Assembly (NCBI GenBank): GCA_041651055.1
Contig: JBAZJW010000001.1
Span: 177,021 to 241,020 of the forward strand
Length of the DNA stretch: 64,000 nucleotides
Reading direction: 5' to 3'
Origin: Minisyncoccota bacterium
GTDB taxonomy: Bacteria; Patescibacteriota; Minisyncoccia; Phycocordibacterales; UBA5272
Shown here: in pieces, positions 16,859 to 42,203 of the stretch
Position numbering within the stretch: position 1 is the first letter of the stretch
How the letters are laid out: the number at the start of each line of letters is the position of its first letter
Notes under the pieces: model-generated
Database searches by the model: none
What the model saw: only the letters and a program-made list of their open reading frames with translations
What the model was told of the DNA's origin: nothing
Program-made: the position numbers and the translations under genes

Positions 16859-16864
16859 AAAACT

Positions 16865-17512: not shown

Positions 17513-17517
17513 TTTTT

Positions 17518-18030: not shown

Positions 18031-18049
18031 TTATTCTTTTTTGTATAAG

Positions 18050-19828: not shown

Positions 19829-19918
19829 CAGTTGTATTATAAAACAATTACATTATTAATCCTAAAAATGTATTATTTACTCATGTGTATCTGTTTAAGT
19901 GAGTTGTATCTTCTGTTA

Positions 19919-21476: not shown

Positions 21477-21699
21477 AATAGTTTGCAGTCAACAGACTAC
21501 AAGTCAACAGAAAGATTCAAAATAACACCGAGGGTGTTATTTTAATTTTGAATCTCTATCGTCTCACTTACGTTCTTTGTTTTGTATTGTCACCCCAATG
21601 AAAATTGGGGTCCAGTGGACACTGGATTCCAAATCGAGTTTGGAATGACACCTGGTGCCCCGCCTGCTTGCTGCGAGGTGGTTCATTTTTGAATCTCAG

Positions 21700-21762
21700 T
21701 ATGTCATTCCCGCGAAGGCGGGAATCCATTACCTAGATTCCCGCCTTCGCGGGAATGACATA
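21700..21762. repeat. GC-rich twin-hairpin palindrome
   Basis: Two 26 nt perfectly complementary arms TATGTCATTCCCGCGAAGGCGGGAAT / ATTCCCGCCTTCGCGGGAATGACATA separated by 11 nt; each arm is itself a hairpin. Confidence 0.6.
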
Positions 21763-21896
21763 TACTCTTCCGTTTGAATATTGAAAATTGTTTCATTGAA
21801 TATTGCCTAGAATATTGTGCGTATCTTTTCCCATATTCACACTCCTCATATATACTGTTCTCTATGAAGCTACTCGTTCTCAGTCTACGTCTCATC

Positions 21897-24836: not shown

Positions 24837-25133
24837 TCATTGTGATTGTGTGAACAATCTTTCGAGGTCATCGAGACCATTTACGTGCAGTACTGTTCCA
24901 TCTCTCGTGGTTATGACAATATGAGGAACGACCTTTGCAGGATATTCCTCCATGAGCTCCTTCCATTTTGGTCCTCCGAAGAAGAACTCTTCAGGGACGA
25001 CGTTCTGAAGTCGGTGTTTAAGCAAGCTTTTGGCTCGAGCGCAAAAACCGCACGGCGGAGATATTCTGGTGAAAATCACGACTCCTCGGACCTCTTCGGA
25101 TGAGAGTGCTCTAGGTTGTTCGACGGCAAACAT
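24837..25133 (-). CDS. glutaredoxin/thioredoxin-like protein
   Basis: CGFC (CxxC) redox motif after a beta-strand VVIFTRISPP; start placed at internal ATG. Confidence 0.5.
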   Translation of the reverse strand: MFAVEQPRALSSEEVRGVVIFTRISPPCGFCARAKSLLKHRLQNVVPEEFFFGGPKWKELMEEYPAKVVPHIVITTRDGTVLHVNGLDDLERLFTQSQ

Positions 25134-25167
25134 CTTTTGTGAACCTTTCTGAAAGGAGAAGATTATC

Positions 25168-25210
25168 AACAAGGCGAGGCCTTGTAGCTACAAGGCCTCG
25201 CCTTGTTACC
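25168..25210. repeat. perfect palindrome (twin hairpin) AACAAGGCGAGGCCTTGT-AGCT-ACAAGGCCTCGCCTTGTT
   Basis: Each 18 nt arm is itself the hairpin ACAAGGC-GAG-GCCTTGT; a single arm recurs at 30735-30752. Confidence 0.6.
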
Positions 25211-25542
25211 AGCAAAAGTGCTGACACTTATTCATACCATATTTATATGGAAGCGGGCAAATGGGAAAATATTTAATACAACAATATTTAATATTCAAAT
25301 GAATCAAATGCATTTAATCCAAAAAACTCCTCTAGGCTTGCAGGGGTTCTCTGAATTAGTATTTACCTCTTTGTATTTAATTGAATATTATTACGAGCAG
25401 TCTGTATAAAAAAATAGAACCCCCAAAGTGGAGGTTCAGAATGGTCCTTAAGCATTCAATGTGTGAGGATGTTTCGTCAACGGACGATCCACACAGGTTA
25501 CGGAATGGGCGCCGAATGGCTCGGGCCCAACCACCACGCAGT

Positions 25543-26016
25543 TCAGGAGAACGTGCCCGCAGCGACCGTGCCAGCGTCGTCGGCCTGCTTCAGCGCAACT
25601 TCGTCGGCGCCGGGCTGATCCTTGGCCGTGTCGGTCGTGCCGGCGTCCTGCTGCTGTTGACCTTCGATGTTTTCACCAGCGCCGAACTGCTTTTCGCCGT
25701 GCAAAATATCGGTGGTGCCCGCCGCGGTCTTGGCCACGCCGCCTTGCTGCTGCTGGATCAATTTCGACTCGTCGTTGCCGATCTGGTTCACGGCGCCCGT
25801 GGTGCCTTGTTCCATCTGCGGGCTTTGGCCGGTGGCGGTCACGCTGATGTCGGCAGGTTGCGCGCCGGCGTTCACGGTGGTCTTGTGCGGATCGGAGGCG
25901 GCCAGCGCGTCGGGCTTCACGGCGGAATGGATCACATCGGTGCCGTGCGCGGCGCCAACGGCCTGATTCAAAAACAGCGCACCGAGGATCGAGAGACGCA
26001 ATTTCAAGTGGTTCAT
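25543..26016 (-). CDS. secreted Ala/Gly/Thr/Gln-rich protein encoded in a ~65% GC insert
   Basis: ATG preceded by AGGAG RBS, signal peptide MNHLKLRLSILGALFLNQAVGAAHG; composition sharply different from flanks. Confidence 0.45.
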   Translation of the reverse strand: MNHLKLRLSILGALFLNQAVGAAHGTDVIHSAVKPDALAASDPHKTTVNAGAQPADISVTATGQSPQMEQGTTGAVNQIGNDESKLIQQQQGGVAKTAAGTTDILHGEKQFGAGENIEGQQQQDAGTTDTAKDQPGADEVALKQADDAGTVAAGTFS

Positions 26017-26285
26017 GGAAAGCTCCTGGTTGAATTGAAGGGAACGGGAACAACGTGCCACAACGGGATGTTGCGACAAGTAATACTCTACCACATACAT
26101 CAAAATCCTGTCAAGGGATATGGGGATAGTCAAAAGTCTATAAAGTTGAAAGTTCATAAAGTAAATACGGCATACAAATATTCAATGATTCAATTTTCAA
26201 TATTCAAACGATAATCAAAACCACTCCCTCAGTATCCACTTTTGACTTTACGGACTTTCTAAACTTTATAGACTATACTAAGACC

Positions 26286-27344: not shown

Positions 27345-27385
27345 AAGATAGTCGAGAGCTGATAGTCGGCAGGTCAAATACACAT

Positions 27386-27418
27386 AAAAAAGCCGCCAGT
27401 ACTCTGGCGGCTTTTGAT
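27386..27418. terminator. bidirectional terminator
   Basis: AGCCGCCAG-TACT-CTGGCGGCT hairpin flanked by A-run and T-run. Confidence 0.6.
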
Positions 27419-27431
27419 TCATTGGTGGCAC

Positions 27432-27758
27432 TTACTGAAAGCGCGACCAAAGTGTTTTTCGCGGTGAAGCATCTTTGATGTCGATCTTTTTCGGCCTGTC
27501 AAAAATGGCATAGATGGCGACGAACAGGGCAACGGGCGCGAAAAGGATCATTGCCCAGAAACAGCACCGCTCCTCATCGTCCCCTGAAAAAGAGATTCGC
27601 CCTTTCGCAAGGAAGCGATAAATCAGTATCCCGAGCAGTCCGGGAGTAAAGTAAAGCGCAGGCCCGGCGAGGTCGGGGGACAATCCGAACACCACAAGCA
27701 ATTGAGCCATGTGACTCAGAAGCCAGTCCAGCCAAGCAATCAAACTTTCTTTCATCAT
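27432..27758 (-). CDS. hypothetical membrane protein in a ~55% GC segment
   Basis: 108 aa, three TM segments; a 29 aa TM peptide ORF (27755..27844, minus) overlaps its start by ATGA. Confidence 0.4.
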   Translation of the reverse strand: MMKESLIAWLDWLLSHMAQLLVVFGLSPDLAGPALYFTPGLLGILIYRFLAKGRISFSGDDEERCCFWAMILFAPVALFVAIYAIFDRPKKIDIKDASPRKTLWSRFQ

Positions 27759-27962
27759 TTACCACTCAGGTAAATTGAAATCACCGCCCAGACGGTCCCG
27801 ACGACCACCAAAAGTGAAGCCATAAAACCCCAGTCAATTTCCATGATTTTCTCCGGTGAAGGTGTTAAAACTAAGAGCCCTCCATCATACTACCATTCTT
27901 GTGAGTATAGTCAAGAGCATACTCTTGCACACAATTGTAAAATAGTGTATAATTTCACAACT

Positions 27963-28280
27963 ATGTCATTCGCAGTTATTCAAACAGGGGGTAAACAATA
28001 CAAGGTTGCCGTTGGCGACGAAATCGCAGTTGAGAAATTGGCCGGCGATTTGAAGGTTGGAGATAAAGTTACTATTAGTGAAGTAGTCCTTAAGGATGAC
28101 GGCGCATCGACAACTCTCGGAGCTCCTTATATCACAGGATCTAAAGTAGAAGCTACTATTATCGAATCAGGCAAGCTTGATAAGGTAATGGTCGTACGTT
28201 ATCGACAGAAATCACGTTATCACAAGCGTAACGGTCACCGTCAGCCGTACATGAGTTTGAAGATTGAAGCAATTAACTAA
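27963..28280 (+). CDS. rplU: 50S ribosomal protein L21
   Basis: MSFAVIQTGGKQYKVAVGDEIAVEKL N-terminus; TGTATAAT extended -10 about 12 nt upstream. Confidence 0.85.
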   Translation: MSFAVIQTGGKQYKVAVGDEIAVEKLAGDLKVGDKVTISEVVLKDDGASTTLGAPYITGSKVEATIIESGKLDKVMVVRYRQKSRYHKRNGHRQPYMSLKIEAIN

Positions 28281-28390
28281 AACACAGAAGTAAGGAGAAT
28301 GAAGAAAGGATAAAGAAAAGTCGCATCTACGATGCGACTTTTCTTTATCCTTGTATCACCATCTTCCTACTTCGTACTCCTTGCTTCTTT

Positions 28391-29017
28391 TTAATTCCTT
28401 CTCTCCAGCGCTGACTTAAACGTATCTCTATCCACGTACTCAAGTTCGAGTCCGCTCGATAGCCCTCGTGCAAGGTGTGAAAGAGTAACTTTTTCAATAC
28501 CGACAATTTGCTTAATTATCTTTTCTACATACTCCGTAGTCGTATCTCCATAATCCGTAACAGGAAGGGCAAAAATGACTTCTGTGAGGCTTTCATCTTT
28601 CAATGCGGTATGTATGTGATTCGTGAGTTCTCGTATACGTATGAGCTCAGAAGGCTTTTCTGTAAGTGGTGGCACAAGACCGCCCAAAATAAAATAGAGA
28701 CCATTGTATGAGCCTGTCTTCTCCACTGCATCTAAGTCAAGTTCTTTTTCGACAATCATCAACTCTCTATGATCACGAGAAGCATTATCGCAAATATCAC
28801 ATAAAACTTTTGCCATTTGGGCATTTTTATCACCAAAGAATCGATAGCATTTTTCGCACTGTTTACCAGTGAACTTTAATTCTTCAAGCGCTTTTATGAG
28901 CTGCTCTTTGTAATGAGAATGTTCACGCAACAAAAAATATACGAAGCGTTTTGCTTGCTTCGGACCAATGCCAGGGAATCTCATAAAGAGTTCAGTAAGT
29001 CTGTCGGTAGCGTTCAT
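28391..29017 (-). CDS. recR: recombination protein RecR
   Basis: HhH N-terminus, C4 zinc finger (CEKCYRF ... CDIC), Toprim-like C-terminus. Confidence 0.9.
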   Translation of the reverse strand: MNATDRLTELFMRFPGIGPKQAKRFVYFLLREHSHYKEQLIKALEELKFTGKQCEKCYRFFGDKNAQMAKVLCDICDNASRDHRELMIVEKELDLDAVEKTGSYNGLYFILGGLVPPLTEKPSELIRIRELTNHIHTALKDESLTEVIFALPVTDYGDTTTEYVEKIIKQIVGIEKVTLSHLARGLSSGLELEYVDRDTFKSALERRN

Positions 29018-29116
29018 AATTTTGTTAAGTATAACAAAATTCGTTATTCGTTAGTAGTTATTCGTTAGGAAATGCAAAACTAATAACGAATAACATCCTA
29101 ACGACTAACGGTATTA

Positions 29117-30595
29117 CTAGAATTCTGGTACATTCACCGTTGGCATAGAGAAGTCGCCAAACTCAGACTTTTCAACGGATACGAAAGACGTCTTCTTGTC
29201 ATCAAAGTAAAGCTCAATCATTCCTGTTGGACCGTTACGGTGCTTTTCAATCAAAATTTCTACAATGTTTTTGCGTTCTGTATTCTCGCCGTATTTATCT
29301 TCACGATGAATAAACATAACCACGTCCGCATCTTGTTCGATAGATCCTGAATCACGAAGGTCAGAAAGTCGAGGTTTACCACCACGAGATTCAACAGCAC
29401 GAGAAAGCTGCGAGAGTGCGATCACTGGAGTATTAAATTCCTTGGCAAGCGCTTTCAATGATCGAGAAATTTCTGTCACTTGGTTTACCATATTGTCATA
29501 ACTCTTGGATGTTCCCATCAACTGCAAGTAGTCCACGATAATGAGTCCGATAGGTTTGTCAGTGTTAAGTCGACGAAGTGTACTTCTCATATTCAAAATA
29601 GTATTCGCGGCTTTATCATCGACGAAAATCGGAGCCTTCATGAGCTCGTGCATGCCTTGCTGAAGGCGAGAAAACTCTTCATCAAGGGTGAGCTTCGCAG
29701 TGCGGAGTTTCCAGCTATCCACCTGAGACTGAGCCGAAAGCATACGGTCGACAAGTTGTTCCTTGCTCATTTCCAGTGAGAAAATGGCCACAGGAATACC
29801 ATGCTTCACCGCAGCGTTACGTGCAAAGTCGAGCGCGAGAGATGTCTTTCCAACAGATGGACGTGCCGCGAGAATAATGAGGTCAGATGGCTGAAAGCCA
29901 GAGAGTTTGTTGTCTAAATCTCTGAAGCCACTCGGCGTACCACGCATACCACCATCTTTTTCGGACATCTTTTCAATACGAGACCAGGTTTCATCAATCA
30001 ATTCGTTGAAACCAATAAGACGATCCGAAGATCCACCCTTGGTTGTGATTTCATAAATACTTTTTTCGGATTCTTCGAGGATAGACTCGAGTGAATCAGC
30101 TTCTTCGTAGGCTATTTCTCCAATATGAGATGTTGCCTCGATGAGCTTTCGCAGTAATTCCTTTTTTCGAACAATCTGAGCGTAGTACTTTACGTTTGCC
30201 GCCGAACCAACAAGCCCGAGAAGGTCAGATAAGTACGGTGCACCACCGATTTGATCAAATTCTTTTCTTTGACGAAGCGCAGCTGATACTGTGAGAATAT
30301 CTACTGGTTCTTTTTTGTTGACGAGCTCATCAATGACTTCATAAATAATCTGATGCTTAGCTGCATAAAAACTCTGTGCATTTACAATATCTGCAATATC
30401 AAAAAGTGCATCTGATGAGAGAAGAAGTGACCCAAGCAGTGCCTTTTCAGATTCCAAATCTTGAGGAGGAATGCGCGGACCGCGAAGAGGATCTTCTACC
30501 TGCTTTCGATCGTAGCTTTCATAATTCCCTCCGTATTTCCCACGTGAACGAGGTTTGCTTTTTGAAGAGGCGGATAGTTGGTCAAGTGGAATCAT
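29117..30595 (-). CDS. dnaB: replicative DNA helicase DnaB
   Basis: Walker A ARPSVGKTSLALDFARNAA, RecA-like C-terminal domain. Confidence 0.9.
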   Translation of the reverse strand: MIPLDQLSASSKSKPRSRGKYGGNYESYDRKQVEDPLRGPRIPPQDLESEKALLGSLLLSSDALFDIADIVNAQSFYAAKHQIIYEVIDELVNKKEPVDILTVSAALRQRKEFDQIGGAPYLSDLLGLVGSAANVKYYAQIVRKKELLRKLIEATSHIGEIAYEEADSLESILEESEKSIYEITTKGGSSDRLIGFNELIDETWSRIEKMSEKDGGMRGTPSGFRDLDNKLSGFQPSDLIILAARPSVGKTSLALDFARNAAVKHGIPVAIFSLEMSKEQLVDRMLSAQSQVDSWKLRTAKLTLDEEFSRLQQGMHELMKAPIFVDDKAANTILNMRSTLRRLNTDKPIGLIIVDYLQLMGTSKSYDNMVNQVTEISRSLKALAKEFNTPVIALSQLSRAVESRGGKPRLSDLRDSGSIEQDADVVMFIHREDKYGENTERKNIVEILIEKHRNGPTGMIELYFDDKKTSFVSVEKSEFGDFSMPTVNVPEF

Positions 30596-30929
30596 GTAGG
30601 TAAGTGTACAGGAGCAGGCAGGTCTTGCACAAAAGAAAATAGTATTGTACTCCGCGTAAAACAGTGGATTGTGGGGATAAGGGGGCAGTTTTCAGTTTGT
30701 AGCTTACAGTTTACAGAAAATACGAAATTACAAGGCGAGGCCTTGTAGTAAATAGAATAGTATTATAGAATAATAAAGCTTCACCCCCCCTTCAGCAAGG
30801 AGACTTCCACACCCACCGAGACTCGAAAAGCAAGCAGTTGCCATGTTCCTCGGTCGGGTACTTTTTATTTTCAACAGCCGAGAGTGTCGACAGTATTTGT
30901 TTGAATATTGAATATTTAATTATTAAATA

Positions 30930-32342
30930 TTACTTTGAAATCTCCTGTCCTCCTCCGGTATCTTTCACGCTATAGCCAAGCTTTTTTAATTCATCACGAA
31001 GTCGGTCTGCTTCAGCGAAGTCCTTTGCAAGACGTGCTTTCAAGCGAGCATCGAGCAATGCTTCTACATCTTTTGATACCGTCAACATTTCTTTCGAAGC
31101 TTTATGAAGAGAAAAACCAAGGATAGAACTCATTTCCATAAGAGTTGCGTACTTGTCTTCATTGTTTACCTGTTCATCTTTAAGCAGTGCCCACATTTCA
31201 GCAATACAGGTCGACGTCCCTAAGTCATCGTAAAGAGCTTCCAAAAACACCTTCGTATGGTTCTGATTCACTACACCGCTATGTGTAATGTGTTCCGCTG
31301 ACCAGTCCCATAATTTTTTGTACGCAACAGAAGACGCATCGAGCGCTTCGAAAGAGAACGCAAGTTCTTTACGGTAATGCGTTGTTAAAAGATAGTACCG
31401 AAAGGCGATAGGGTCATATCCTTTATCGACAAGTGTTTGTAATCTCAAAAACTCACCGCTTGATTTTGCCATTTTCCCTGCAGTATCATTCAAGAAATTA
31501 TTGTGCATCCAATAGTTTACGTACGTCTCACCGTTAGCACATTCACTTTGTGCTATTTCATTCGTGTGATGCACAGGAATATGATCGATACCACCTGTGT
31601 GAATATCAAAATGCGGTCCGAGAATCTTCTTTGACATCGCAGAACACTCAATATGCCAACCAGGGAAGCCTTTTCCCCAAGGAGAATCCCATTCCATTTG
31701 ACGTTGTTCATTTTTGGGGACTTGCCCTGAGCGTGTCGAATGGGAGAATTTCCACAGTGCAAAGTCGGTGATGTTTTTCTTCTCTGTATTTTCTTCTACA
31801 CGGGCACCACTTTGTAGTCCTTCTATATCTAAATGTGCGAAATCTGCATACCGTGGGAACTTTGATGTATCGAAATAGATACCATCTGAAATGGCGTAGG
31901 TGTAGCCTTTTTCTTCAAGCGTTTGCACAAGTGCAATTTGTTCAGGAATAGTATCCGTCGCTCTCGGAAAAATGTATTCACTGCGGTTGATATTAAGGAG
32001 GTCTAAACAATGAAAATATTCTTTCGTGTAAAAGTCCGCTATTTCCCACACAGTCTTACCTTCACGCTTTGAACCTTTCTCCATTTTATCTTCACCAGTA
32101 TCACCGTCAGTCACCAAATGACCAACATCTGTGATATTAATAACATGCGTAACATCATATCCAGCAGAAAGAAACATATTGTGGAGAGTATCCGCAAAAA
32201 CCACCGCGCGCATATTACCGAGGTGCTGATAATGATACACCGTCGGACCACATGAATACATACCAACCTTACCTTCAGTTATCGGTTTAAATTCTTCAGT
32301 GGTTCTAGATTTTGTATTGTGAAGTTTAATTATCGGGGTCAT
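30930..32342 (-). CDS. cysS: cysteinyl-tRNA synthetase
   Basis: MYSCGPTVYHYQHLGN (HIGH-type) and KMAKSSG (KMSKS) motifs. Confidence 0.9.
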   Translation of the reverse strand: MTPIIKLHNTKSRTTEEFKPITEGKVGMYSCGPTVYHYQHLGNMRAVVFADTLHNMFLSAGYDVTHVINITDVGHLVTDGDTGEDKMEKGSKREGKTVWEIADFYTKEYFHCLDLLNINRSEYIFPRATDTIPEQIALVQTLEEKGYTYAISDGIYFDTSKFPRYADFAHLDIEGLQSGARVEENTEKKNITDFALWKFSHSTRSGQVPKNEQRQMEWDSPWGKGFPGWHIECSAMSKKILGPHFDIHTGGIDHIPVHHTNEIAQSECANGETYVNYWMHNNFLNDTAGKMAKSSGEFLRLQTLVDKGYDPIAFRYYLLTTHYRKELAFSFEALDASSVAYKKLWDWSAEHITHSGVVNQNHTKVFLEALYDDLGTSTCIAEMWALLKDEQVNNEDKYATLMEMSSILGFSLHKASKEMLTVSKDVEALLDARLKARLAKDFAEADRLRDELKKLGYSVKDTGGGQEISK

Positions 32343-32356
32343 ATATTCCGTAAAAG

Positions 32357-33628
32357 ATGTTCCTTCATTCTATCATAAAGACAAGGTATACTGATGGCTA
32401 TATGAATGAACATCCACGTATATCTAAAAAATACATTATTCGCAGTATCGGCATAGGAGGTCTGGTCTTCGGGCTTTTTGCTTTTGGTTTTTTGATGGGA
32501 AATGCGATGGGTAGCCCAAGTTATGCATCTCAAGTAACCGGACAAATGAATAGCACCCTTCTCGGAAAGGTACAGTCAACACTTGGTGAAAAATTCGTGT
32601 TCTGGAAAGCGTCGTCAACACTTCCAACAGATAAAGAACTCGAGTACGGCATGATAAAAGGCTACGTCGAAAGTTACAAAGATCCGTACACGGTCTTTTT
32701 CCCACCAGCAGAGGCAAAAAGCTTCACTGAAAATGTACAAGGATCCTTCGGTGGTGTAGGAATGAATGTTGGCATGAAAGATGGCAACATCGTCGTTATT
32801 TCCCCACTCAAAGATTCTCCAGCAATGAAAGCCGGAATAAAGGCAGGGGATATAATCACTGCCGTAAACGATAAAAACATGGTTGGGCTTTCATCAGACG
32901 AAGCAGTGAATCTCATTCGTGGACCGATTGATACAAGTGTAAAGATAACCGTACTTCATACAGGAGGAAAGGCGGTAACAGATATCACTATTGTTCGTAA
33001 AGAAATAAAAATCCCAACAATAGATACTGAAACTAAAAATGGCGTATTCGTAATTCATTTGTATAACTTCTCTGCTGAATCTCCGGCACTTTTCGGTGGA
33101 GCATTAAATAGTTTTCTTACATCAAAGCTAAAATACCTCGTGATTGATCTTCGAGGAAACCCAGGAGGATACCTTGAGGCTGCAGTGAATATGGCAAGTT
33201 ACTTTTTGAAAGATGGAGCCGTAGTAGTGAGCGAGAGACAGGGAAAGGATGAGCTTGTTGTAAATCATAGAAGCACAGGAATTAGAGCTCTAGAAGCGTC
33301 GACAAAAGTGGTTGTCTTGATTGATGGAGGGTCAGCTTCAGCATCTGAAATATTAGCTGGAGCTTTGAAGGATTCAGCTGGCGCAAAAATTGTCGGTGAA
33401 AAGTCGTTTGGCAAAGGATCTGTGCAAGAACTTGTAAACTTTGACGATGGATCATCACTTAAAGTAACGATTGCAAAATGGTATACGCCAAACGGTGTGA
33501 ACATTTCTGTGAACGGTATCAAGCCTGACGTGGAAAGTGTTGCAACGACAACGGTAAAAGGAAAAGATGGTAAACCACTTGATGTACAACTTTTGAAAGC
33601 GATCGAGGTGGTGAAGGGGATGAGGTAA
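32357..33628 (+). CDS. ctpA: C-terminal processing protease (S41, CtpA-like) with PDZ domain
   Basis: DLRGNPGGYL and LIDGGSASASEILAGAL S41 motifs; start may instead be ATG at 32402. Confidence 0.8.
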   Translation: MFLHSIIKTRYTDGYMNEHPRISKKYIIRSIGIGGLVFGLFAFGFLMGNAMGSPSYASQVTGQMNSTLLGKVQSTLGEKFVFWKASSTLPTDKELEYGMIKGYVESYKDPYTVFFPPAEAKSFTENVQGSFGGVGMNVGMKDGNIVVISPLKDSPAMKAGIKAGDIITAVNDKNMVGLSSDEAVNLIRGPIDTSVKITVLHTGGKAVTDITIVRKEIKIPTIDTETKNGVFVIHLYNFSAESPALFGGALNSFLTSKLKYLVIDLRGNPGGYLEAAVNMASYFLKDGAVVVSERQGKDELVVNHRSTGIRALEASTKVVVLIDGGSASASEILAGALKDSAGAKIVGEKSFGKGSVQELVNFDDGSSLKVTIAKWYTPNGVNISVNGIKPDVESVATTTVKGKDGKPLDVQLLKAIEVVKGMR

Positions 33629-33676
33629 AAACAGTTTTTAGTTTCCAGTTTTTAGTTTTTAGAAAATACAAACACA

Positions 33677-33716
33677 CGAAGAAGCGCGCCTACAGCGCGC
33701 TTCTTGTATTGTATTA
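33677..33716 (+). terminator. rho-independent terminator
   Basis: 13 bp stem CGAAGAAGCGCGC/GCGCGCTTCTTG followed by TATTGTATT. Confidence 0.6.
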
Positions 33717-33796
33717 ACTCACAACCCCTAACTGCCAACTCCTAACTCTTGCCCCCACTGGGCCCCTCTGTAATTATTTGCTATAATCAACCTACT

Positions 33797-34237
33797 ATGA
33801 AAATAATTCTCCTCAAAGATACGGCAAATCTCGGTAAACGAGGCGATGTAAAAGATGTGCCAGAAGTGTATGCAATCAACGTCCTCATCAAAAAAGGTAA
33901 CGCTCTCCAAGCCACACCAGCTGAACTTCTTAAGTGGAAACAAAAGAACGAATCAGAGAAGCATAAGAAGGAAATTCAAACGAACACCTTCCTACAACTC
34001 ATTGATAAACTTCACAAAGAAAAAGTCACCATTACTGGCAAGAAGCATGATGATAAAGGACAACTCTTCGCTCAAATAAAAGATGTCGATATAGCTGATG
34101 CTATTTTTGCACTCACATCCTTTTCAATAGATCCGAAGCAAGTAACAATCTCGTCACCAATTAAATCAATCGGCGCACACATCGTAGAACTCAAACAAGG
34201 AGCACAAAAAGAAAAGATAACGATAGAGGTGAAATAA
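33797..34237 (+). CDS. rplI: 50S ribosomal protein L9
   Basis: MKIILLKDTANLGKRGDVKDV N-terminus; TATAAT 8 nt upstream of ATG. Confidence 0.85.
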   Translation: MKIILLKDTANLGKRGDVKDVPEVYAINVLIKKGNALQATPAELLKWKQKNESEKHKKEIQTNTFLQLIDKLHKEKVTITGKKHDDKGQLFAQIKDVDIADAIFALTSFSIDPKQVTISSPIKSIGAHIVELKQGAQKEKITIEVK

Positions 34238-34238
34238 C

Positions 34239-34838
34239 ATGCCAAAATTACAACTGTCAGATATTCTACAGTTCACAGAACTCCTTAATACTTTTACTGG
34301 CATAAAAAGAGTTTGTTATATACCTAAAACTAATATTCGGGAGAATGACGTAGAGCACAGCTATGGGCTTGCGATACTGGCATGGTATATAGCAGAAAAT
34401 AGCTCTATTGTTTTAGATAAAAATCTAGTTCTTAAATATGCTTTAATACATGATCTGGTAGAAGTCTACGCGGGGGATACGTATCTCTACTCTGAAAACC
34501 AAAACGACCATGATAGTAAAAAAGAAAGGGAGGAATCTGCTCGTTTACGCATACTTGAAGAGTTTCCTCTATTTAAAGATCTGCACAAAACTATCTTAGA
34601 TTATGAAAAGAGAGAAGATGAAGAAAGTCGTTTCGTTTATGTGTTAGATAAAATTCATCCCGTAATTCAAATGTATTTAGATAACGGAAGAATGTGGAAA
34701 GAACAGAAAGTCACTCTTGCTATGCTTATAGAAAAGAAAGCGGACAAAGCGCTTCTTTCTACAGAACTCTTGCCGTATTGGGATGAGTTACTAAAGCTAT
34801 TAACAGAGAGTGAGGACAAACTATTCCATAAAAAATAA
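34239..34838 (+). CDS. HD-domain phosphohydrolase (YfbR-like)
   Basis: VEHSYGLAILAW ... IHDLVEVYAGDT (H...HD...D) motifs. Confidence 0.7.
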   Translation: MPKLQLSDILQFTELLNTFTGIKRVCYIPKTNIRENDVEHSYGLAILAWYIAENSSIVLDKNLVLKYALIHDLVEVYAGDTYLYSENQNDHDSKKEREESARLRILEEFPLFKDLHKTILDYEKREDEESRFVYVLDKIHPVIQMYLDNGRMWKEQKVTLAMLIEKKADKALLSTELLPYWDELLKLLTESEDKLFHKK

Positions 34839-34867
34839 AACCGCTCAGATGAGCGGTTTTATTTTGA

Positions 34868-35158
34868 CTACTTTGTCTTTGGTTCGAGACCGACGTTTGC
34901 CACCTTCTTTCGCTTGAGTGTTCCATCAAGATGCTTCATGCGTCGTTCTGTAAATGATACCTTTCCTTCCACAAGTGCGAAAAGAGTGTGATCACGTCCA
35001 AGTCCAACGTTCTTTCCTGGCATGATTTTTGTACCACGCTGGCGAACGATAATAGCACCAGCTGACGCTGTTTCTCCAGCATAAAGCTTAGTACCAAGGT
35101 ACTTTGGCTTACTGTCTGTTAGGTTTTTTGCCGAACCTGCGGCTTTTCTTGTTGCCAT
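34868..35158 (-). CDS. rpmA: 50S ribosomal protein L27
   Basis: [29 protein letters not shown] ... [32 protein letters not shown]. Confidence 0.85.
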
Positions 35159-35170
35159 AGCGTATACTAA

Positions 35171-35530
35171 ATGTTAAATATTATGTTGCGTAGTATACAA
35201 GATTATGCAAAAAGAATCAATAGCAGTCTCCCGCGTGCGAATGTCTTTAGTCTTTTGATTACAGCATTATTCCTCCTTTGTTTTACGGTTTTTCTGTACA
35301 TAAAGAGGGGAGCAGACGATATTCCTGTATCTTATATACCAAACAACAGCCCTTCCACTGACCAAAAAGAAGTCGATTCACGTCCATTTGCAAGCAAAAA
35401 CGGCAAGACCTACACATTTTCATGGTGCAGTGGTAGCACGAACATTTCCCTGAAAAATAAGATTTATTTTGTGGACGAGGCTACCGCTCAAGCTTCGGGG
35501 CGTACGCTTTCAAAATTGTGTACTAAATAA
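35171..35530 (+). CDS. hypothetical membrane-anchored protein
   Basis: N-terminal TM; C-terminal [10 protein letters not shown]...[18 protein letters not shown] weakly reminiscent of Ada-type metal-binding folds. Confidence 0.3.
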
Positions 35531-35722
35531 TAGTTGTCCACTTTCAACTTTATACTTTTAACTTTACACTGTGTACATATGGCAAAAAAAGAACAACACG
35601 GAACACGTGAAAAAAAGAAGGCAAAGAAGGTAGTCGTTAAATAATATAAAGTAAGCAATAAAAAATGCCCATCCGAGTAAACCCGGAGGGCGTTTGTTGA
35701 TTAAGAGGAGGGCAGACCCTGC

Positions 35723-36145
35723 TTAGTCTTGCAGTGGTAGGGCGCGAAGGATTTTCATCTCCTTGCGTACACGCAGGAATGCAAACACTGTAGCAATGGC
35801 AGCCAGCGATATGCCGCACCATGCCATGAATGATACGTAGTCAGTGTGCACATACTTTGTGATCCAGAGATACAAGAATCCTGCGATCAAAGCCCCTCCA
35901 GCGACACCAGACAACATCTTCTTCATGATAGATGCTGCTATGAAGAAGAAGGAAGCTGTGAATGATATGACCACGAATGTGGTGATCTCGTCTTCCCACT
36001 TGGGGTACAGGGTCGTCGCATCAGTTCCCAAAAAGAGCAGGACAGACCACGGCAAAAGCATCCAAAATGCGAAACCGTAGAGCATGTCTGAATATGCCTT
36101 GGAAAAGACGGGACCCCAATCAACCTTTTCAACGTCTGATTGCAT
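35723..36145 (-). CDS. hypothetical membrane protein (GC-rich insert)
   Basis: ATG preceded by AAGGAG RBS; four TM segments; about 58% GC. Confidence 0.4.
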   Translation of the reverse strand: MQSDVEKVDWGPVFSKAYSDMLYGFAFWMLLPWSVLLFLGTDATTLYPKWEDEITTFVVISFTASFFFIAASIMKKMLSGVAGGALIAGFLYLWITKYVHTDYVSFMAWCGISLAAIATVFAFLRVRKEMKILRALPLQD

Positions 36146-36159
36146 GGCAATCTCCTTGA

Positions 36160-36594
36160 CTATGTGCGGCGCAATTTCTGTGCCGCGATGTGAACGAACA
36201 AGAATACCGTCGCGATGGCCGGCAAGACCACGGCGCAGACGACCGTGATGGTGGTAGCGTAGACCGTGCCCGCCTGTGCGAACAACGCGAAGGAAGACGC
36301 TGCCCAAAACATGCTGCATGCGACCAAAAGTACCACACGTCCTTGCCTCAACTCCATAAGGTTCCACACTTGCAATAGAACCATTACAAGCGGGGTAAAG
36401 AAACACCCCGTCATGCCGATGCCCATGGACCAGAACCATTCTTGCTGCCACTCGGGCCCGCTGAGCACTGCGCGCCTGAGCACGAGGGTCAGGAGACCAA
36501 AAACAGCTGCGACGGCAGACACGCTGTAAAAACGCATCAGCCACCAGTTAAAGTACTCCAAAGCCGATTCAGGCTTTTCCAAGACGATTGTCAT
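36160..36594 (-). CDS. hypothetical membrane protein (GC-rich insert)
   Basis: ATG preceded by AAAGGAGCACCCC; four TM segments. Confidence 0.4.
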   Translation of the reverse strand: MTIVLEKPESALEYFNWWLMRFYSVSAVAAVFGLLTLVLRRAVLSGPEWQQEWFWSMGIGMTGCFFTPLVMVLLQVWNLMELRQGRVVLLVACSMFWAASSFALFAQAGTVYATTITVVCAVVLPAIATVFLFVHIAAQKLRRT

Positions 36595-36727
36595 GGGGTG
36601 CTCCTTTCTAAATAATGTTGAGCAAGTTTACAATACTATATTTTTAGTAGTCTGTCAATGAATACCCTCTATACACACATCTTAAATCTGGCGACTGATA
36701 TACTCAACACTTCACCTCCTAAAAATT

Positions 36728-37462
36728 ATGCTCGAACTATATCTCCCCATACTCATTTCACTTTTTATTATTGAAGTTTTGCTTTCTGTCGACAACGCAC
36801 TTGTAAACGCAACACTCGCAGAATCTCTTCCGGAGGAAAAACGAAAGCGCGCGATACGTATCGGTATTTTACTCGGAGCAGTTTTCCGTATCGTCGCACT
36901 TTTCTTGGTGGCGATTATTATTCAAAATGTGTGGCTAAAAGTTTTAGGAGGTCTCTATCTTGTATACCTTGCAATTGCCCATCTTGGAAAAGCGGTAACG
37001 GAAGAAGGTAAAGCCATAACCCCGAAAACCACATATCGAGGGGTCATTATACAAATCGCACTCGCAGACATTGTTTTTAGTATTGATAACGTTATTTCTG
37101 CGGTAAGTTTTTCAGAAAATATTTATATCGTCATGCTGGGTGTCGGCATCGGTGTCATCAGTATGCTTTTCATTACGCCAATTCTTTCGAAACTTATTCA
37201 CAAGTATAAAGGTATGCCACAAGCCGCATATGCAATAGTGGGGATTGTTGGAATAACACTTCTCATTGAAACACTCACAACCCTACACATAACCGAAGCT
37301 GCAAAATTCGCGATGGTTCTTGGTATTGTCTTCTTTACTATATTCTACGAACACAGTCTTAGGTTACGGAGACTTTCAAATCCGATTCTTATCAAATTAC
37401 AATATATCATTGCGCTTCCTCTGGATATCATGTACGCCATCAGAGCCCATCTCCAAAAATAA
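36728..37462 (+). CDS. TerC family membrane protein
   Basis: LSVDNALVNA and IDNVISAVS duplicated TerC motifs. Confidence 0.75.
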   Translation: MLELYLPILISLFIIEVLLSVDNALVNATLAESLPEEKRKRAIRIGILLGAVFRIVALFLVAIIIQNVWLKVLGGLYLVYLAIAHLGKAVTEEGKAITPKTTYRGVIIQIALADIVFSIDNVISAVSFSENIYIVMLGVGIGVISMLFITPILSKLIHKYKGMPQAAYAIVGIVGITLLIETLTTLHITEAAKFAMVLGIVFFTIFYEHSLRLRRLSNPILIKLQYIIALPLDIMYAIRAHLQK

Positions 37463-37492
37463 GAAAGTTGTTTCTTTTGCTATACTGATCTC

Positions 37493-40400
37493 ATGGAACC
37501 AACTTTCGAGAGTCGTTACAAAGCACTCAATCAAGCACAGAAGAAAGCTGTAGATACTACTGACGGCCCTGTGATGGTTATAGCTGGTCCTGGAAGTGGA
37601 AAGACAGAACTTCTCTCACTTCGCGTGGGAAACATTCTTAAAAACGGCACAGCGAAGGCCTCGAACATTCTCCTTCTCACTTTTACTGAGACAGCTGCAC
37701 AAAATATGCGCGAGAGATTGGAAGCGCTCATCGGAGCAGATGCGTATCGTGTCGCTATCTACACCTTCCATGGATTTTGTACGGACATTATAGGGAGATA
37801 CCCGGAATACTTTTTCAATGCCACACACTTCAGACCAGCGAGTGACTTGGCTCAAAGTGAAATTTTGCAGACGATTTTCGAGCATCTTCCTCACAAGCAC
37901 ATACTCGGGAGCTATCACCCAGAGCGAGGGTATGCTTATTTGAAAGAATGTCAGGTGAGAATTAAAGATATTAAAAAAGGTGGACTGACACCGATGAGAT
38001 GGAGGGAGTTGATGGGGGAAAATGCGGCAGCATTTTCCACATTAAACGATATTCTTGCAACCCACCTCCCAGAGCGAATCGGAAAAGATTCTCACACTGC
38101 TTTTGAAACAATGCAATCACTCTTTGAAAAAACGGGAAGCAATCTCGGTCACATGTATGCACTTTCAATTAAAGAAGCACTTGATGAGGTAGACGCTACC
38201 GAAAAAACAACACCACTTTCAGAATGGAAAACAGACTTCACAGGAAAAGACGAGAATGGTAAGCGGGTATTCAAAGATTTTTTGTTGCTTCCGAAGCTTA
38301 TAGCACTCGGAGATGTGTATGAGATGTATCAGAATGCACTTCACACTGCCGGATACTTTGATTATGAAGATATGATTCTTCAAGTAGTGGAAGCTCTCGG
38401 CAAACATGTGACGCTTCGCACAGAGCTTGAAGAAATGTATCAGTACATCATGGTGGACGAATTCCAAGACACCAACAATGCACAACTCTCACTTGTAAAA
38501 GCTATTTCGAGTAACCCAGTGCATGAAGGTAGACCGAATGTCTGTGTGGTAGGGGATGATGATCAAGCCATTTACAAATTCCAAGGGGCGGAGATTTCAA
38601 ACATTCATTCCTTCAAAGAACTTTACAACGATGTGGAGACTATCGTTCTCACAGAAAATTATCGATCGACTCAAAAGGTGCTGGATTTTGCACGTGCCAT
38701 TGTAACCCAAGGTGTGAATCGTCTCGAAACTCGTTATGAAGAAATTAGTAAAGTGCTCATTGCTAAAAATAAAAAACTAGAATCAGGGACCATTTATACA
38801 CAGGCTTTTTCGACAGCCGAAGAAGAGTACGTCTACATCGCTGGAGAAGTGGAACGACATTTAGCAGAAGGTGTTCCTGCAAAAGAGATAGCCCTCATCG
38901 CACGCGAACACAAACAGCTCATTTTATTATTGCCATATCTCGACGCACTCCATGTACCGTACACATACACGCGCAAAGAAAATGTGTTCGACGAGAAACA
39001 TGTAAAAGAACTTATTATGTTATGTCGTTTTTTGGCAACTGTAAGCGATAGCACTAATGAACGAGATGATTTATTGCCGGAGATTTTGGCCTTCCCATTT
39101 TGGGGGCTCAATCGTATCAGTATTTGGCGCATCGCCGAACATGCTAAAAGAGAAAACATTTCGTGGCTTACCGCAATGTCACAGTCGGAAGACATTCGTA
39201 TCAAAGATCTCGCAGCATTCTTGATAGAGCTCGGTGTCGCCAGCCAAACCACACCACTAGAAATTATTTTGGACACGCTCATTGGCAGTAAAGACGTACC
39301 ACTTACAACTGAGTCACCAGAAGATGATGCGAACTTTGACCCGACATCACTTCATTTAGAAACATCTTTCACCTCACCATACAAAGAATACTATTTTGGA
39401 AAAGACGCACTCAAACATAATGCGAGTACATATATTAATTTCCTTTCATCACTTCGTGTTTTTATGCATGCACTTCGTGAATATAAAGAAGGGGAGACCC
39501 TTCGCACGCATGATGTCGGAGCCTTCGTCGATATTCATACTGACTACAATATTCCACTCATCAATGAGACACCCTTTGCGCATAATGAAAACTCTGTGTC
39601 GCTCCTTACCTCTCACGGCGCGAAGGGACTGGAGTTCGCTTATGTCTTTGTCGTGTCCGTTAACGATGCTATTTGGGCCGGAAGTAAAAAGGGGAACAAA
39701 CTTTCATTTCCAATCAACCTTCCACTTGCAAGTGCGGGGGACAACGAGGACGATTTCATTCGACTCTTTTACGTAGCACTCACACGCGCACGTCACACAC
39801 TCTATATCACACATCACAAAAGTCCATTACGATTTTTATCGACGAGTGAATTGCCGGATACAGAAACATCACGCCCAACACTTGAAGTCCCGGACCTTCT
39901 TGCTCACGGTCTTTCTGTGTATCACGCTCCTCCATTTGCAAAAGATGAAAAAGCCTTGCTTCAAAAAGTGGTAGAAGGGTACATGTTGTCACCGACGCAT
40001 CTCAATAACTTTTTGGACTTAACAAAAGGGGGTCCGATGATGTTCCTGGAACAGAACCTCCTTCGTTTTCCTCAAGCCAAGAATGCAAGCAGTGTCTATG
40101 GTACAGCGATTCACAAGGCGCTCGAAGATGCACACATCATGGCTCGCAAAGATGGGAAAGTTCCACCACTTGAAACACTTATCAAAACATTTGTTCATGA
40201 ACTAAAACGTGGCCGCCTACAGGACTTTGAAGAAGATAAATTATTAGCACGTGGAGAAAAAGTGTTGACGCAGTATTACGATATCAAGAAAAAAGATATT
40301 AGCGGTGAACATATTGTCGAACTCAACTTCTCCAAGCAGTCCGTGATGGTTGGCGGAGCATTGCTCACAGGAAAGATAGATAAAATTATTGAAGATGAAA

Positions 40401-40798
40401 ATAAAGACTGGACCGTGGTAGATTTAAAAACAGGAAAAGGATTCAGTGCATGGGACGAGCCGAAGCAAAGTGTGTACGACGAAATAAAACTTCACCACTA
40501 CAAGTACCAACTAATGATGTACAAAGTGCTCGTAGAAAATTCTCGAGATCATAATACGCGGACCGTAAAAGAAGGAGTGCTTGAATTCGTCGAAGAAGAA
40601 GTGGCAGGGAAAATACAAGAGCTGTCGCTTTCTTTTAAAGATAAAGACGTGGAGCACGACCTCGCAAAATTTACCAAGCTTATTATGGCGGTGTACACCA
40701 AAATCACGAACCTCGATTTCCCAGATACAAGCACGTACGCAGAAAGTTTGGAGGGCATCAAAGAATTCGAAGAAGATTTAATCGCCGGAGTTATATAA
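37493..40798 (+). CDS. UvrD/PcrA-type helicase fused to C-terminal RecB-family (PD-(D/E)xK) nuclease, AddA-like
   Basis: Walker A AGPGSGKTE, helicase motifs (DEFQDTN, VVGDDDQAIYKFQGA), C-terminal GKIDKI...VVDLKTGK nuclease motif. Confidence 0.8.
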   Translation: MEPTFESRYKALNQAQKKAVDTTDGPVMVIAGPGSGKTELLSLRVGNILKNGTAKASNILLLTFTETAAQNMRERLEALIGADAYRVAIYTFHGFCTDIIGRYPEYFFNATHFRPASDLAQSEILQTIFEHLPHKHILGSYHPERGYAYLKECQVRIKDIKKGGLTPMRWRELMGENAAAFSTLNDILATHLPERIGKDSHTAFETMQSLFEKTGSNLGHMYALSIKEALDEVDATEKTTPLSEWKTDFTGKDENGKRVFKDFLLLPKLIALGDVYEMYQNALHTAGYFDYEDMILQVVEALGKHVTLRTELEEMYQYIMVDEFQDTNNAQLSLVKAISSNPVHEGRPNVCVVGDDDQAIYKFQGAEISNIHSFKELYNDVETIVLTENYRSTQKVLDFARAIVTQGVNRLETRYEEISKVLIAKNKKLESGTIYTQAFSTAEEEYVYIAGEVERHLAEGVPAKEIALIAREHKQLILLLPYLDALHVPYTYTRKENVFDEKHVKELIMLCRFLATVSDSTNERDDLLPEILAFPFWGLNRISIWRIAEHAKRENISWLTAMSQSEDIRIKDLAAFLIELGVASQTTPLEIILDTLIGSKDVPLTTESPEDDANFDPTSLHLETSFTSPYKEYYFGKDALKHNASTYINFLSSLRVFMHALREYKEGETLRTHDVGAFVDIHTDYNIPLINETPFAHNENSVSLLTSHGAKGLEFAYVFVVSVNDAIWAGSKKGNKLSFPINLPLASAGDNEDDFIRLFYVALTRARHTLYITHHKSPLRFLSTSELPDTETSRPTLEVPDLLAHGLSVYHAPPFAKDEKALLQKVVEGYMLSPTHLNNFLDLTKGGPMMFLEQNLLRFPQAKNASSVYGTAIHKALEDAHIMARKDGKVPPLETLIKTFVHELKRGRLQDFEEDKLLARGEKVLTQYYDIKKKDISGEHIVELNFSKQSVMVGGALLTGKIDKIIEDENKDWTVVDLKTGKGFSAWDEPKQSVYDEIKLHHYKYQLMMYKVLVENSRDHNTRTVKEGVLEFVEEEVAGKIQELSLSFKDKDVEHDLAKFTKLIMAVYTKITNLDFPDTSTYAESLEGIKEFEEDLIAGVI

Positions 40799-40802
40799 CT
40801 GT

Positions 40803-41114
40803 GTGAAAAAAGTAAATGAACGAGGAACGCACACGACAACTATTGAGGGTGCAAAAGATATACTGAAAGCTTTTAATAAAATTGGAGTGGTTGTATCGCC
40901 TGGGGTAATCGAAGCCAATGCAAAATCAAGAGGCAAAAGCGTGAAGTTAAAAAAAGTAAACAATGAGACATTCGAAATGGTTGTCGTTGTGAATAGTAGC
41001 AAACAAACATTCAAAGTATACGGTGAAAATCAAAGAGATATTATCAAGCTTATCAATAGTTTCAAATCAGAAAATTGGAATGTGCAGAAGGTGTTGGATA
41101 TTTCGGGAAAATAA
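40803..41114 (+). CDS. hypothetical protein
   Basis: 103 aa ORF 5 nt after helicase stop; followed by terminator 41142-41178. Confidence 0.35.
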   Translation: MKKVNERGTHTTTIEGAKDILKAFNKIGVVVSPGVIEANAKSRGKSVKLKKVNNETFEMVVVVNSSKQTFKVYGENQRDIIKLINSFKSENWNVQKVLDISGK

Positions 41115-41187
41115 AACACAGTAGCAAAATATAAGGCAAATAAAAAAGCCGTCCCGTAGGGGCGGCCTTTGTTGCGAACAAGGAAGG

Positions 41188-41598
41188 TCAGGCTTCAATA
41201 CGAATCCTGCTGTTGTACGCATCCCACAACTTGCGAAGAGCAAGGGGGTACTGCACCCGGAAGTTATTGTGGAGCTCATTTCCCACTTCAACCCTTGGGG
41301 CAAGGACGAAGGCTCCGAGATTGAATATTTTCCTGTTCTTGAGGTGCCTTGCGAACCTGCTGGAAAATCTCTTGTTCGGAAAGGCTTCAAAGAAGCTGAT
41401 AACCGGGAAATTTTCCCAATTGGCGCCGTCCTGAAACATCTCCCTTAAAGCTTTGAGATCACTGAGAGCCTTCGGGGCCTCCAGTTTTCCTTGGCGATCG
41501 AGGATTTCAACCCTTTCAATCGCCCAGTTGACAGCGAACTTTGCCTGAGCCAAATGTTCAGGGTCGGGTTTTTCCTTCTTTTTCACAGAGGTTACCAT
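41188..41598 (-). CDS. hypothetical protein (GC-rich insert)
   Basis: ATG preceded by AAGGAGAAGCTC RBS; about 52% GC. Confidence 0.35.
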   Translation of the reverse strand: MVTSVKKKEKPDPEHLAQAKFAVNWAIERVEILDRQGKLEAPKALSDLKALREMFQDGANWENFPVISFFEAFPNKRFSSRFARHLKNRKIFNLGAFVLAPRVEVGNELHNNFRVQYPLALRKLWDAYNSRIRIEA

Positions 41599-42053
41599 GA
41601 GCTTCTCCTTGAGGTTGTTGCGTGGTGGTTACCACGGGCGGCCGGGGTCCTTGCTTGCAGAGCAAGTGCGTACAAGTGGCGCTGCCTCTCCGCGCCAGAC
41701 TTTTCGAGCTCGTGAAGAATGAAAAACAGTTCCCGTGTGGAAGCTGTTAGGAATGCCGACACTGTCGAGATCCCAACTTCTTCAAAACGAAGAACTGTCA
41801 TCTTGCACGTACAAATCTCTCCCAGCGCAAAATCAATAGGGCCAAGAGATTCAGAAACGGAGATGCGAGCATGGAGCAACAGTTCTAACGCCCCTCTCAG
41901 TCGTGCGGCATCCTCTTCCGTAACTTCCAAAGGGGGAAGGAATCTTAACGCAAAATCATTTTTAAGTCGCAACAATAGACGACAAGACTGAGCGGCGTGA
42001 GATAAGTCATTCCTCATCTCCACTCGGTCCAAAAGATGTGGCTTTTGATTCAT
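41592..42053 (-). CDS. hypothetical protein (GC-rich insert)
   Basis: Start set at ATG with GAAGGAAAACC RBS; ORF-track version 41592..42203. Confidence 0.3.
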   Translation of the reverse strand: MNQKPHLLDRVEMRNDLSHAAQSCRLLLRLKNDFALRFLPPLEVTEEDAARLRGALELLLHARISVSESLGPIDFALGEICTCKMTVLRFEEVGISTVSAFLTASTRELFFILHELEKSGAERQRHLYALALQARTPAARGNHHATTSRRSSW

Positions 42054-42203
42054 GGTTTTCCTTCTTATTGTGATCACCTTACGGGGATCGGGGTTGAAAA
42101 AACTAAGAACTGAAGGGAATACTATACCACGCAGATAGTTTGAGGTCAATAATTTTTTACATGCACAACAACCCTTTCCTCTTACTGCTATACTAGAATA
42201 CAT

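Follow-up and report, generated by a model that had tools for sequence, protein, structure and literature searches.

What are short GC-rich islands doing between the housekeeping genes of a small bacterial genome, and why are their genes started differently from those around them? The question is raised by a 64,000-nt stretch of DNA from a Minisyncoccota bacterium (assembly GCA_041651055.1, contig JBAZJW010000001.1, positions 177,021–241,020), which was analyzed as a whole and is called the window here; coordinates given without a locus name are positions within it. Judged from its sequence, the organism is a small-genome member of the Candidate Phyla Radiation (CPR)/Patescibacteria (Candidatus Paceibacterota). 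A sequence-only reading of the window had proposed that small cassettes were taken up repeatedly from higher-GC donors and kept donor-style translation signals. The account that we regard as reasonably probable is another one, in which the genome would hold two classes of genes: a leaderless core and, in fixed slots between core genes, autonomous cassettes that are led by Shine–Dalgarno (SD) sequences, evolve fast, are rich in GC at third codon positions (GC3) and are old residents of the lineage.

The window has an overall GC content of 41.3%. Three islands, at 27425–27850 (50.2% GC), 35700–36600 (52.3%) and 41150–42100 (50.1%), rank at percentiles 96.5, 99.1 and 98.5 among same-size windows, and a fourth block at 8860–11330 (46.5%) at percentile 97.7. 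GC maxima of the islands in 200-bp windows are 55–58%, so that the 50–58% GC first ascribed to the three segments holds as 50–52% overall with peaks at the upper figure. Most of the excess lies at third codon positions, where the islands have a GC3 of 0.48–0.72 compared to a core median of 0.37, an elevation of 0.11 to 0.35; the composition is thus atypical at synonymous sites too. The core genes flanking the islands are conserved housekeeping genes whose order is kept in at least 19 species.

All six genes of the three islands (I1a, I1b, I2a, I2b, I3a and I3b) are on the minus strand, and the same build occurs three times: a promoter with a TTGACn −35 element and a −10 element, a leader of ~30–65 nt, an SD, two small open reading frames (ORFs) and an intrinsic terminator. 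In a promoter scan, the three promoters ranked among the best −35/−10 sites in 25–44 kb, and the terminators are hairpins (−17 to −20 kcal/mol) with a U-run behind them. The islands had been described as bounded by terminators, which is correct for the 3′ end; at the 5′ end there is a promoter instead. A strong ribosome-binding site was likewise found for I1a, I2a, I2b and I3b (GGAG/AAGGAG) but not for I3a, where it is moderate (AAGGAA), or I1b, where it is weak. Transmembrane (TM) prediction assigns four of the six proteins to the membrane and leaves two as soluble. None of them, and none of nine slot proteins from relatives, matched an entry of Pfam, PADLOC or PHROGs. No integrase or transposase genes or tRNA targets adjoin the islands, no convincing flanking direct or inverted repeats, target-site duplications or terminal inverted repeats were seen at their borders, and Rfam matched no family in the window except tRNA.

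Cassette I1 (27345–27920, minus strand) fills the slot that extends from the stop codon of rmuC to the promoter of rplU. The promoter scan placed its promoter, TTGACT-N16-TAGTAT with a TG in front, at 27887–27914 (minus), upstream of I1a (27755–27844, minus; GGAG SD at 27851–27854), a 29-amino acid peptide with one predicted TM segment. A small hydrophobic peptide of this kind could be considered for the toxin of a type I toxin–antitoxin pair, in which an antisense RNA overlaps the toxin gene. I1b (27432–27758, minus; 108 amino acids, two predicted TM segments) shares 4 nt with I1a, and its SD is weak; from these two features, its translation is probably coupled to that of I1a. The intrinsic terminator at 27388–27415 (minus) has a 12-bp stem followed by U6 (−20.4 kcal/mol, z = −5.4). 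Cassette I2, in the slot between the h119 and TerC genes, starts from a TTGACA-N17-TATTGT promoter found in the same scan (36630–36658, minus) and encodes I2a (36160–36594, minus; 144 amino acids, AAGGAG SD at 36601–36606) and I2b (35723–36145, minus; 140 amino acids, its own AAGGAG SD at 36152–36157), each with four predicted TM segments, ahead of a terminator at about 35667–35691 (minus; −17.0 kcal/mol, then U6). Comparison of I2a with I2b revealed weak similarity, and I2b is possibly a distant paralogue of I2a.

Cassette I3 (41115–42180, minus) lies in the AddA|PDDEXK slot, between the stop of h103 and the promoter of the PD-(D/E)XK nuclease gene. Its promoter, TTGACC-N17-TATAGT preceded by TG (42121–42149, minus), is the best promoter-like site in 25–44 kb. 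I3a (41592–42053, minus; AAGGAA SD) is a helical protein of 153 amino acids without TM segments that has conserved CxC and RQxHLxALA motifs; I3b (41188–41598, minus; 136 amino acids, no TM segment, AAGGAG SD at 41605–41610) overlaps it by 7 nt. The terminator hairpin at 41148–41166, to which no strand was assigned, is also placed to terminate the convergent h103. I3a gave an AF2 model with a pLDDT of 90.7 and no confident fold match, with zero hits in a PDB profile search and nothing significant in BFVD; its likening to the helix-hairpin-helix of the RNA polymerase α C-terminal domain was a guess and stayed unconfirmed after the fold searches. The slot, a favored site, separates two recombination nucleases.

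The genes around the islands are built differently. The sequence-only reading had noted a hexamer near the start codon and no SD in native genes, which was borne out: in rmuC, rplU, recR, lexA, the helicase gene at 37493 and the nuclease gene at 42204, a TATACT, TATAAT or TACACT box ends 6–10 nt before the ATG, and none of the six has an upstream SD. On the plus strand, the rmuC box (TATACT, 26274–26279) ends 6 nt before the ATG at 26286; that of rplU (TATAAT, 27948–27953), conserved in three related loci (L019, L027 and L009), 9 nt before the ATG at 27963; that of the AddA-like helicase-nuclease gene (TGcTATACT, 37481–37486) 6 nt before the ATG at 37493, an arrangement repeated in loci L022 and L024; and that of the PD-(D/E)XK nuclease gene (TGcTATACT, 42189–42194) 9 nt before the ATG at 42204. 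The rplU start used here is 27963; the first in-frame ATG of that ORF is at 27843, 120 nt upstream. A promoter logo built from 68 core genes reads tTGnTATACT, and every −35 position in it holds 0.3 bit or less.

A scan of one genome per species for the AddA-like helicase yielded 19 orthologous loci with helicases 58–81% identical to that of the window and records labeled Nomurabacteria, Paceibacterota or Saccharibacteria. ORF sets were drawn from the window, these 19 loci, four loci reached through I3a homologues and 80 metagenome loci reached through RmuC. ORF calling was mechanical: the longest ORF was kept, and its start was set at the first available start codon. The statistics set comprised 84 loci and 1,154 ORFs, with families found in at least ten loci counted as core (n = 476) and those found in at most two as variable (n = 493).

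The two classes differ sharply in their start signals. An SD stands before the first start of 18.7% of variable and 3.2% of core genes (Fisher p 1e-15), and a −10-like hexamer 4–12 nt before the first start of 30.5% of core and 7.5% of variable genes (Fisher p 1e-20); at control internal starts the hexamer was present in 9%, and in core genes it rose to 51% when any candidate start was allowed. The SD motif peaks at −12 to −9 with 0.28 per variable gene; the background is 0.03–0.06, and core genes have 0.05. ATG is the start codon behind a −10 box in 94% of cases and behind an SD in 75%, and the box-to-start spacing has its mode at 6–9 nt, both as expected for leaderless mRNAs. A near-consensus −35/−10 pair, at a distance of 26–69 nt, precedes 24% of the GC-rich variable genes and 4% of the core genes, and the promoters of several variable genes match 12 of 12 consensus positions. 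In L022 and L024, every core gene carries TATACT…ATG, and nearly every slot gene GGAG and a high GC3. GC-rich variable genes run antiparallel to co-oriented flanking core genes in 68% of cases (39/57, p = 0.0075).

With the box 6–9 nt from the start, 94% ATG, no SD and no −35 element, the leaderless look attributed to the native genes finds support, and a leaderless reading of the core genes appears well supported by these statistics. The island genes fall outside the native distribution of SD use and GC, and the proposal of two gene classes differing in composition and start signals held over the 84 related loci. The SD/leaderless split is kept in every host-GC stratum from 35 to 53%, including hosts whose variable genes are not GC-richer, and the translation signals are therefore independent of a high-GC origin.

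If the cassettes were recent arrivals, donors should leave traces; what was found instead were relatives in the same places. Searches of 5.8 and 1.8 billion proteins returned no non-CPR homologue of I3b, I2b or I3a, whereas I1b, I2a, I3a and I3b have homologues 28–37% identical in the same slots of other species. I1b matches L036 6025–6396 in the rmuC|rplU slot (37% identity, E 1e-7), where the I1 −35 element and the stretch aatggtagtatga are kept, so that the promoter can be aligned between the window and L036. I2a matches L022 10107–10529 in the h119|TerC slot (28% identity over 124 amino acids, E 1e-20), which is likewise GC-rich and SD-led. Exhaustive phmmer searches found nine remote homologues of I3a, and the two on long contigs sit in the AddA|PDDEXK slot of other Paceibacteria, embedded in arrays of 7–9 small SD-led genes (L022 and L024). 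A jackhmmer search over the fetched loci collected 10 members of the I3a family and 12 of the I3b family, every one in that slot; I3a and/or I3b are present in 12 of the 18 genomes having it. In a word-indexed search of the 5.8-billion-protein collection, I3b matched only itself, and tblastn in relatives recovered no island protein apart from one weak I3a match. The expanded slots (L022 1154–5243 and L024 5212–9629) hold small SD-led GC-rich genes without known domains, with the I3a and I3b families represented by two to four copies.

Some relatives lack the islands and have tight junctions in their place. rmuC and rplU are 53–61 bp apart in L009 and L019 and also in L027, and alignment with these three loci gave the limits of I1 (~27345–27920); h103 and the nuclease gene are ~32–45 bp apart in L016, an empty site for I3. 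The same-slot homologues and the alignable I1 promoter indicate that the cassettes predate the split of species whose core proteins are 70–80% identical. I3a identity is 87% at an AddA identity of 96% but drops to about 28–32% at an AddA identity of 80%; on such comparisons the cassette proteins appear to accumulate divergence at least three times as fast as core proteins. Their orphan look and patchy distribution are accounted for by this rapid divergence together with loss, duplication or replacement.

The GC excess behaves as a lasting trait. In four families, all 27 members, from 14 hosts with 33–45% core GC, are GC-richer than the core of their host (Wilcoxon p = 1.5e-8), by 0.4 to 14.9 points in GC and 5 to 35 points in GC3. 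Family GC rises with host GC with a slope of about 1.25, which amounts to a persistent offset and not a fading donor signature. G-ending and C-ending codons are both raised, and first and second codon positions shift little. Over a wider set of 47–58 loci, variable-gene GC follows host GC with a slope of 0.57–0.78 and crosses it at about 47–50% GC.

Four origins of the GC3 excess were ruled out. Codon selection for expression was rejected as ribosomal protein genes have core-level GC3, a strand effect as minus-strand core genes are not GC3-rich, a regional effect as flanking core genes show no GC gradient or spill-over, and a preference for C-ending codons alone as G rises too. Two candidates were retained: GC-biased gene conversion confined to the cassettes, and repeated exchange in a clade-wide gene pool.

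Uptake of the islands as separate, fairly recent imports from an unrelated higher-GC donor such as a host bacterium, with composition and SD signals retained, would fit the atypical composition at synonymous sites and the empty sites in some relatives. It would also fit a neighboring gene of 65% GC (25543–26016, described below), whose composition is hard to explain by an internal process and whose one homologue, 52% identical, is GC-rich too; moreover, entry of foreign DNA into this genome is evident from an AT-rich defense island at 16.7–20 kb. In the three main islands, however, the evidence contradicts recent uptake: searches of the two protein collections found no donor homologue, CPR homologues of I1b, I2a, I3a and I3b keep their positions, the GC excess follows host GC, and the borders are free of integrase genes, tRNA targets and direct or inverted repeats. 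The claim that donor-style translation signals were retained fares no better, as the SD/leaderless split is independent of the GC difference and the cassette −10 boxes share the native TGn extension. We consider such imports unlikely as a general explanation, although a foreign origin is plausible for the 65% GC gene and for the first ancestor of each family. That the islands are assembly chimeras or non-genuine ORFs is highly improbable. The window is a metagenome assembly and the proteins have no known domains, but the same proteins occur in independent records (an ENA contig, an NCBI metagenome-assembled genome contig with JGI, and a Logan assembly), the architecture is shared by related species across dozens of independent assemblies, the SD peak is position specific, and I3a has a confident fold prediction and conserved motifs.

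Exchange clearly does occur to some extent within the clade. L003 and L004 have core proteins 93% identical, yet one slot gene is 31% identical between them beside a neighbor at 87%, and the identity of a slot gene between L007 and L011 (core 94% identical) is 49%. At L004 20040–20792, L007 19867–20616 and L015 18588–19340, in genomes with core proteins only 69–74% identical, the copies of an SPFH/Band 7 gene are 92–98% identical, which on sequence identity reads as a clear recent transfer within the clade. Cassettes in general might then recombine between CPR genomes of differing GC through the flanking core genes, the slot being kept; incoming alleles would on average be GC-richer in a 41% GC host, and with their own promoter, SD and terminator they would work anywhere. 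That each family keeps one slot across species agrees with this, as do the divergent slot genes and the SPFH transfer, and the wider-set slope crossing at ~47–50% GC is what a shared pool predicts. Yet in the four families all 27 offsets are positive and the slope is about 1.25 rather than below 1, no GC-rich cassette was found closer between two genomes than their core genes, and the flanking core genes show no GC gradient and hence no signature of recombination tracts. Clade-wide exchange as the main source of the cassettes is a possibility that we hold with considerable doubt.

The preferred reading, a leaderless core with long-resident cassettes, has its own difficulties. In more distant hosts whose GC exceeds 50%, the variable genes fall slightly below the core in GC, a pattern to which an exchanged pool of ~47–50% GC is at least as well suited as strict residency. 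Fast-evolving genes of an AT-biased genome would not be expected to keep a GC excess, and the preferred reading does not explain why they do. The core proteins of the nearest relatives are ~78–80% identical, so that gain and loss are inseparable for each individual island. Homology within the cassette families is remote (16–37% identity); the similarity of I1b to L006 1073–1426, in the same slot, is weaker and marginal, as is that between I3a and I3b (hhalign probability 17%), and no homologue of I1a was detected. For I2b the database search gave self-matches alone, including a mis-called version of I2b; a concatenated I1b+I2a+I2b query, capped at 8000 candidates, was a weak search, with only the mis-called I2b among the matches listed and the I1b and I2a self-hits missing. 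The gene calls are crude, some variable ORFs being probably spurious and many true starts missed. Finally, the leaderless reading of the core is drawn from motif position, and the anti-SD at the 3′ end of the 16S rRNA is assumed to be canonical.

In the arrangement that we propose, core genes such as rmuC, rplU, recR, dnaB and those of the AddA-like helicase and the PD-(D/E)XK nuclease would be transcribed from a minimal extended −10 element, tTGnTATA(C/A)T, with no −35; to go by the sequence, the 5′ ends of their mRNAs would coincide with the start codon or lie a few bases from it, and translation would proceed with no SD. A slot cassette would use a −35/−10 promoter (TTGACn, 16–18 nt, TGnTAnnnT), a leader of ~25–65 nt and a GGAG-type SD with its 5′ end 9–12 nt before the start codon to express one to three small, often overlapping ORFs for membrane or small helical proteins, followed by an intrinsic terminator, and would usually be oriented against the flanking core genes. 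The cassettes would be old residents of the lineage, the same families staying in the same slots and being lost, duplicated or replaced there; their higher GC, chiefly GC3, and SD-led translation would be stable traits of the class and not donor leftovers. That their proteins serve variable roles at the cell envelope or with DNA is only a guess.

A further, rather speculative step would be to see two expression channels here, with the core expressed leaderless and a canonical SD channel serving hypervariable cassettes kept GC-rich by a cassette-specific force, for example, GC-biased conversion. Were this so, variable and possibly host- or phage-facing proteins could be regulated through the state of the ribosome or of initiation factors, and GC3 would mark a recombining compartment in ultra-small genomes. 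In any case, the stable positive GC offset is a clean natural setting in which GC-biased gene conversion can be weighed against selection in bacteria. An own −35 promoter, an SD, a GC3 excess and a fixed slot together provide a sequence-only route to fast-evolving CPR genes, mostly now hypothetical orphans and likely candidates for host or phage interaction. If the core of Paceibacteria is largely leaderless, gene-start annotation needs leaderless-aware models, as the rplU example illustrates. Atypical GC and absence from some relatives are insufficient to call a recent foreign acquisition.

The system combines known kinds: leaderless bacterial genomes, gain-and-loss hotspots and moron-like units. 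Phage morons, described by Hendrix and colleagues, are reportedly small added units with their own promoter and terminator that are unlike the surrounding base composition. Like them, the cassettes equip one or a few ORFs between neighboring genes with a promoter and a terminator of their own, but they lie between chromosomal housekeeping genes and not in a prophage, with the same families persisting in each slot, and no PHROGs family or viral fold was matched by them. Chromosomal hotspots, or islets, are positions flanked by conserved core genes at which other genes are gained and lost. Here, too, a few core-flanked intergenic positions carry variable, non-homologous or highly diverged cargo; the differences are that the cargo is 0.5–1 kb, has a uniform regulatory build and a positive GC offset, and comes with no mobility genes or repeats. 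Integron cassettes are promoterless, have attC sites and adjoin an integron integrase. The arrays in L022 and L024 recall them as runs of small ORFs, mostly of unknown function, in one orientation, yet contain no integrase or attC-like repeats, and each unit has its own promoter; the sole repeats between cassettes are the terminator-then-promoter junctions.

Among leaderless genomes, the nearest parallel is group C of GeneMarkS-2 (Actinobacteria and Deinococcus–Thermus), in which a Pribnow box lies 6–10 nt before the starts of first-in-operon genes and other genes have an SD (PMC6028130). The core genes of the window similarly show a Pribnow box 6–10 nt from the start and no SD, and other genes are SD-led. 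In the present case, however, the split follows gene class (core versus slot cassettes), beyond operon position alone, and the SD-led class differs also in GC3 and promoter type. The host is a CPR/Paceibacteria bacterium whose SD-led genes are GC-richer, contrary to a reported tendency of atypical genes to be poorer in GC than typical ones (PMC6028130). A literature search turned up no paper linking leaderless genes with CPR, Paceibacteria or Parcubacteria.

The window contains other islands. The weaker GC-rich block (8865–11278, plus strand) had been taken as GC-rich and SD-led throughout but is a mosaic: genes at 8865–9158 (with a terminator at about 9176–9200), 9284–9805 and 10688–11074 are GC-rich and SD-led and are followed by one at 11093–11278, whereas the ferritin-like gene (9852–10571, minus) is of native type, with a GC of 0.41 and a TATACT box 14 nt before its ATG at 10571. 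The most extreme island (25417–26114, minus; 58–67% GC) neighbors I1 and has the same build, with a TTGACA-18-TAGAGT promoter at 26085–26114, an AGGAG SD and a terminator at 25417–25437 (minus). Its gene, at 25543–26016 (minus), encodes a secreted-looking protein of 157 amino acids, rich in Q, G, A and T and with an apparent signal peptide; the single known homologue lies on a 574-nt contig and is likewise SD-led. GC-poor accessory DNA is present in the genome as well: the AT-rich island at 16706–20128 (29–35% GC, GC3 0.18–0.26), next to tRNA-Gln (20453–20524, minus), comprises genes for a Panacea/SocA antitoxin-domain protein (16706–17512), a 170-amino acid protein without assignment (17518–18030) and a fusion of a reverse transcriptase with a trypsin-like protease (18050–19711, minus), and has the look of a defense-type reverse transcriptase system.

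Cassette terminators share a similar tail, TTTTT(T)ATG(T/C), seen also in L022 at about 1908, 2832, 3342 and 4326 and in L021 at about 985. The 13-mer TTTTTATGTGTAT is identical at two cassettes of the window (9196–9208, plus, and 27379–27391, minus), and the 9-mer tail TTTTTTATG is not enriched in the window overall. In L022, a junction of terminator, TTTTTTATGC and TTGACT-17-TAnnnT is repeated between adjacent cassettes with 73% identity, which suggests that cassettes duplicate along with their control regions.

A long GC-rich palindrome, caaggcgaggccttgtagctacaaggcctcgccttg, follows a glutaredoxin-like gene (24837–25172, minus) at 25166–25205, and a related hairpin, tacaaggcctcgccttgta, lies at 30729–30747; the two may represent a repeated terminator-like element. 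A GC-rich inverted repeat, gtcattcccgcgaaggcgggaatctaggta with its complement, lies between two divergent ORFs at 21568–21790. The rpmA gene (L27, minus) and a conserved gene for a 119-amino acid protein (plus) are divergent, with their first ATGs 12 nt apart (35158–35171); if both are leaderless, their −10 boxes would lie inside each other's 5′ coding ends, and the true start of the 119-amino acid gene may be further downstream.

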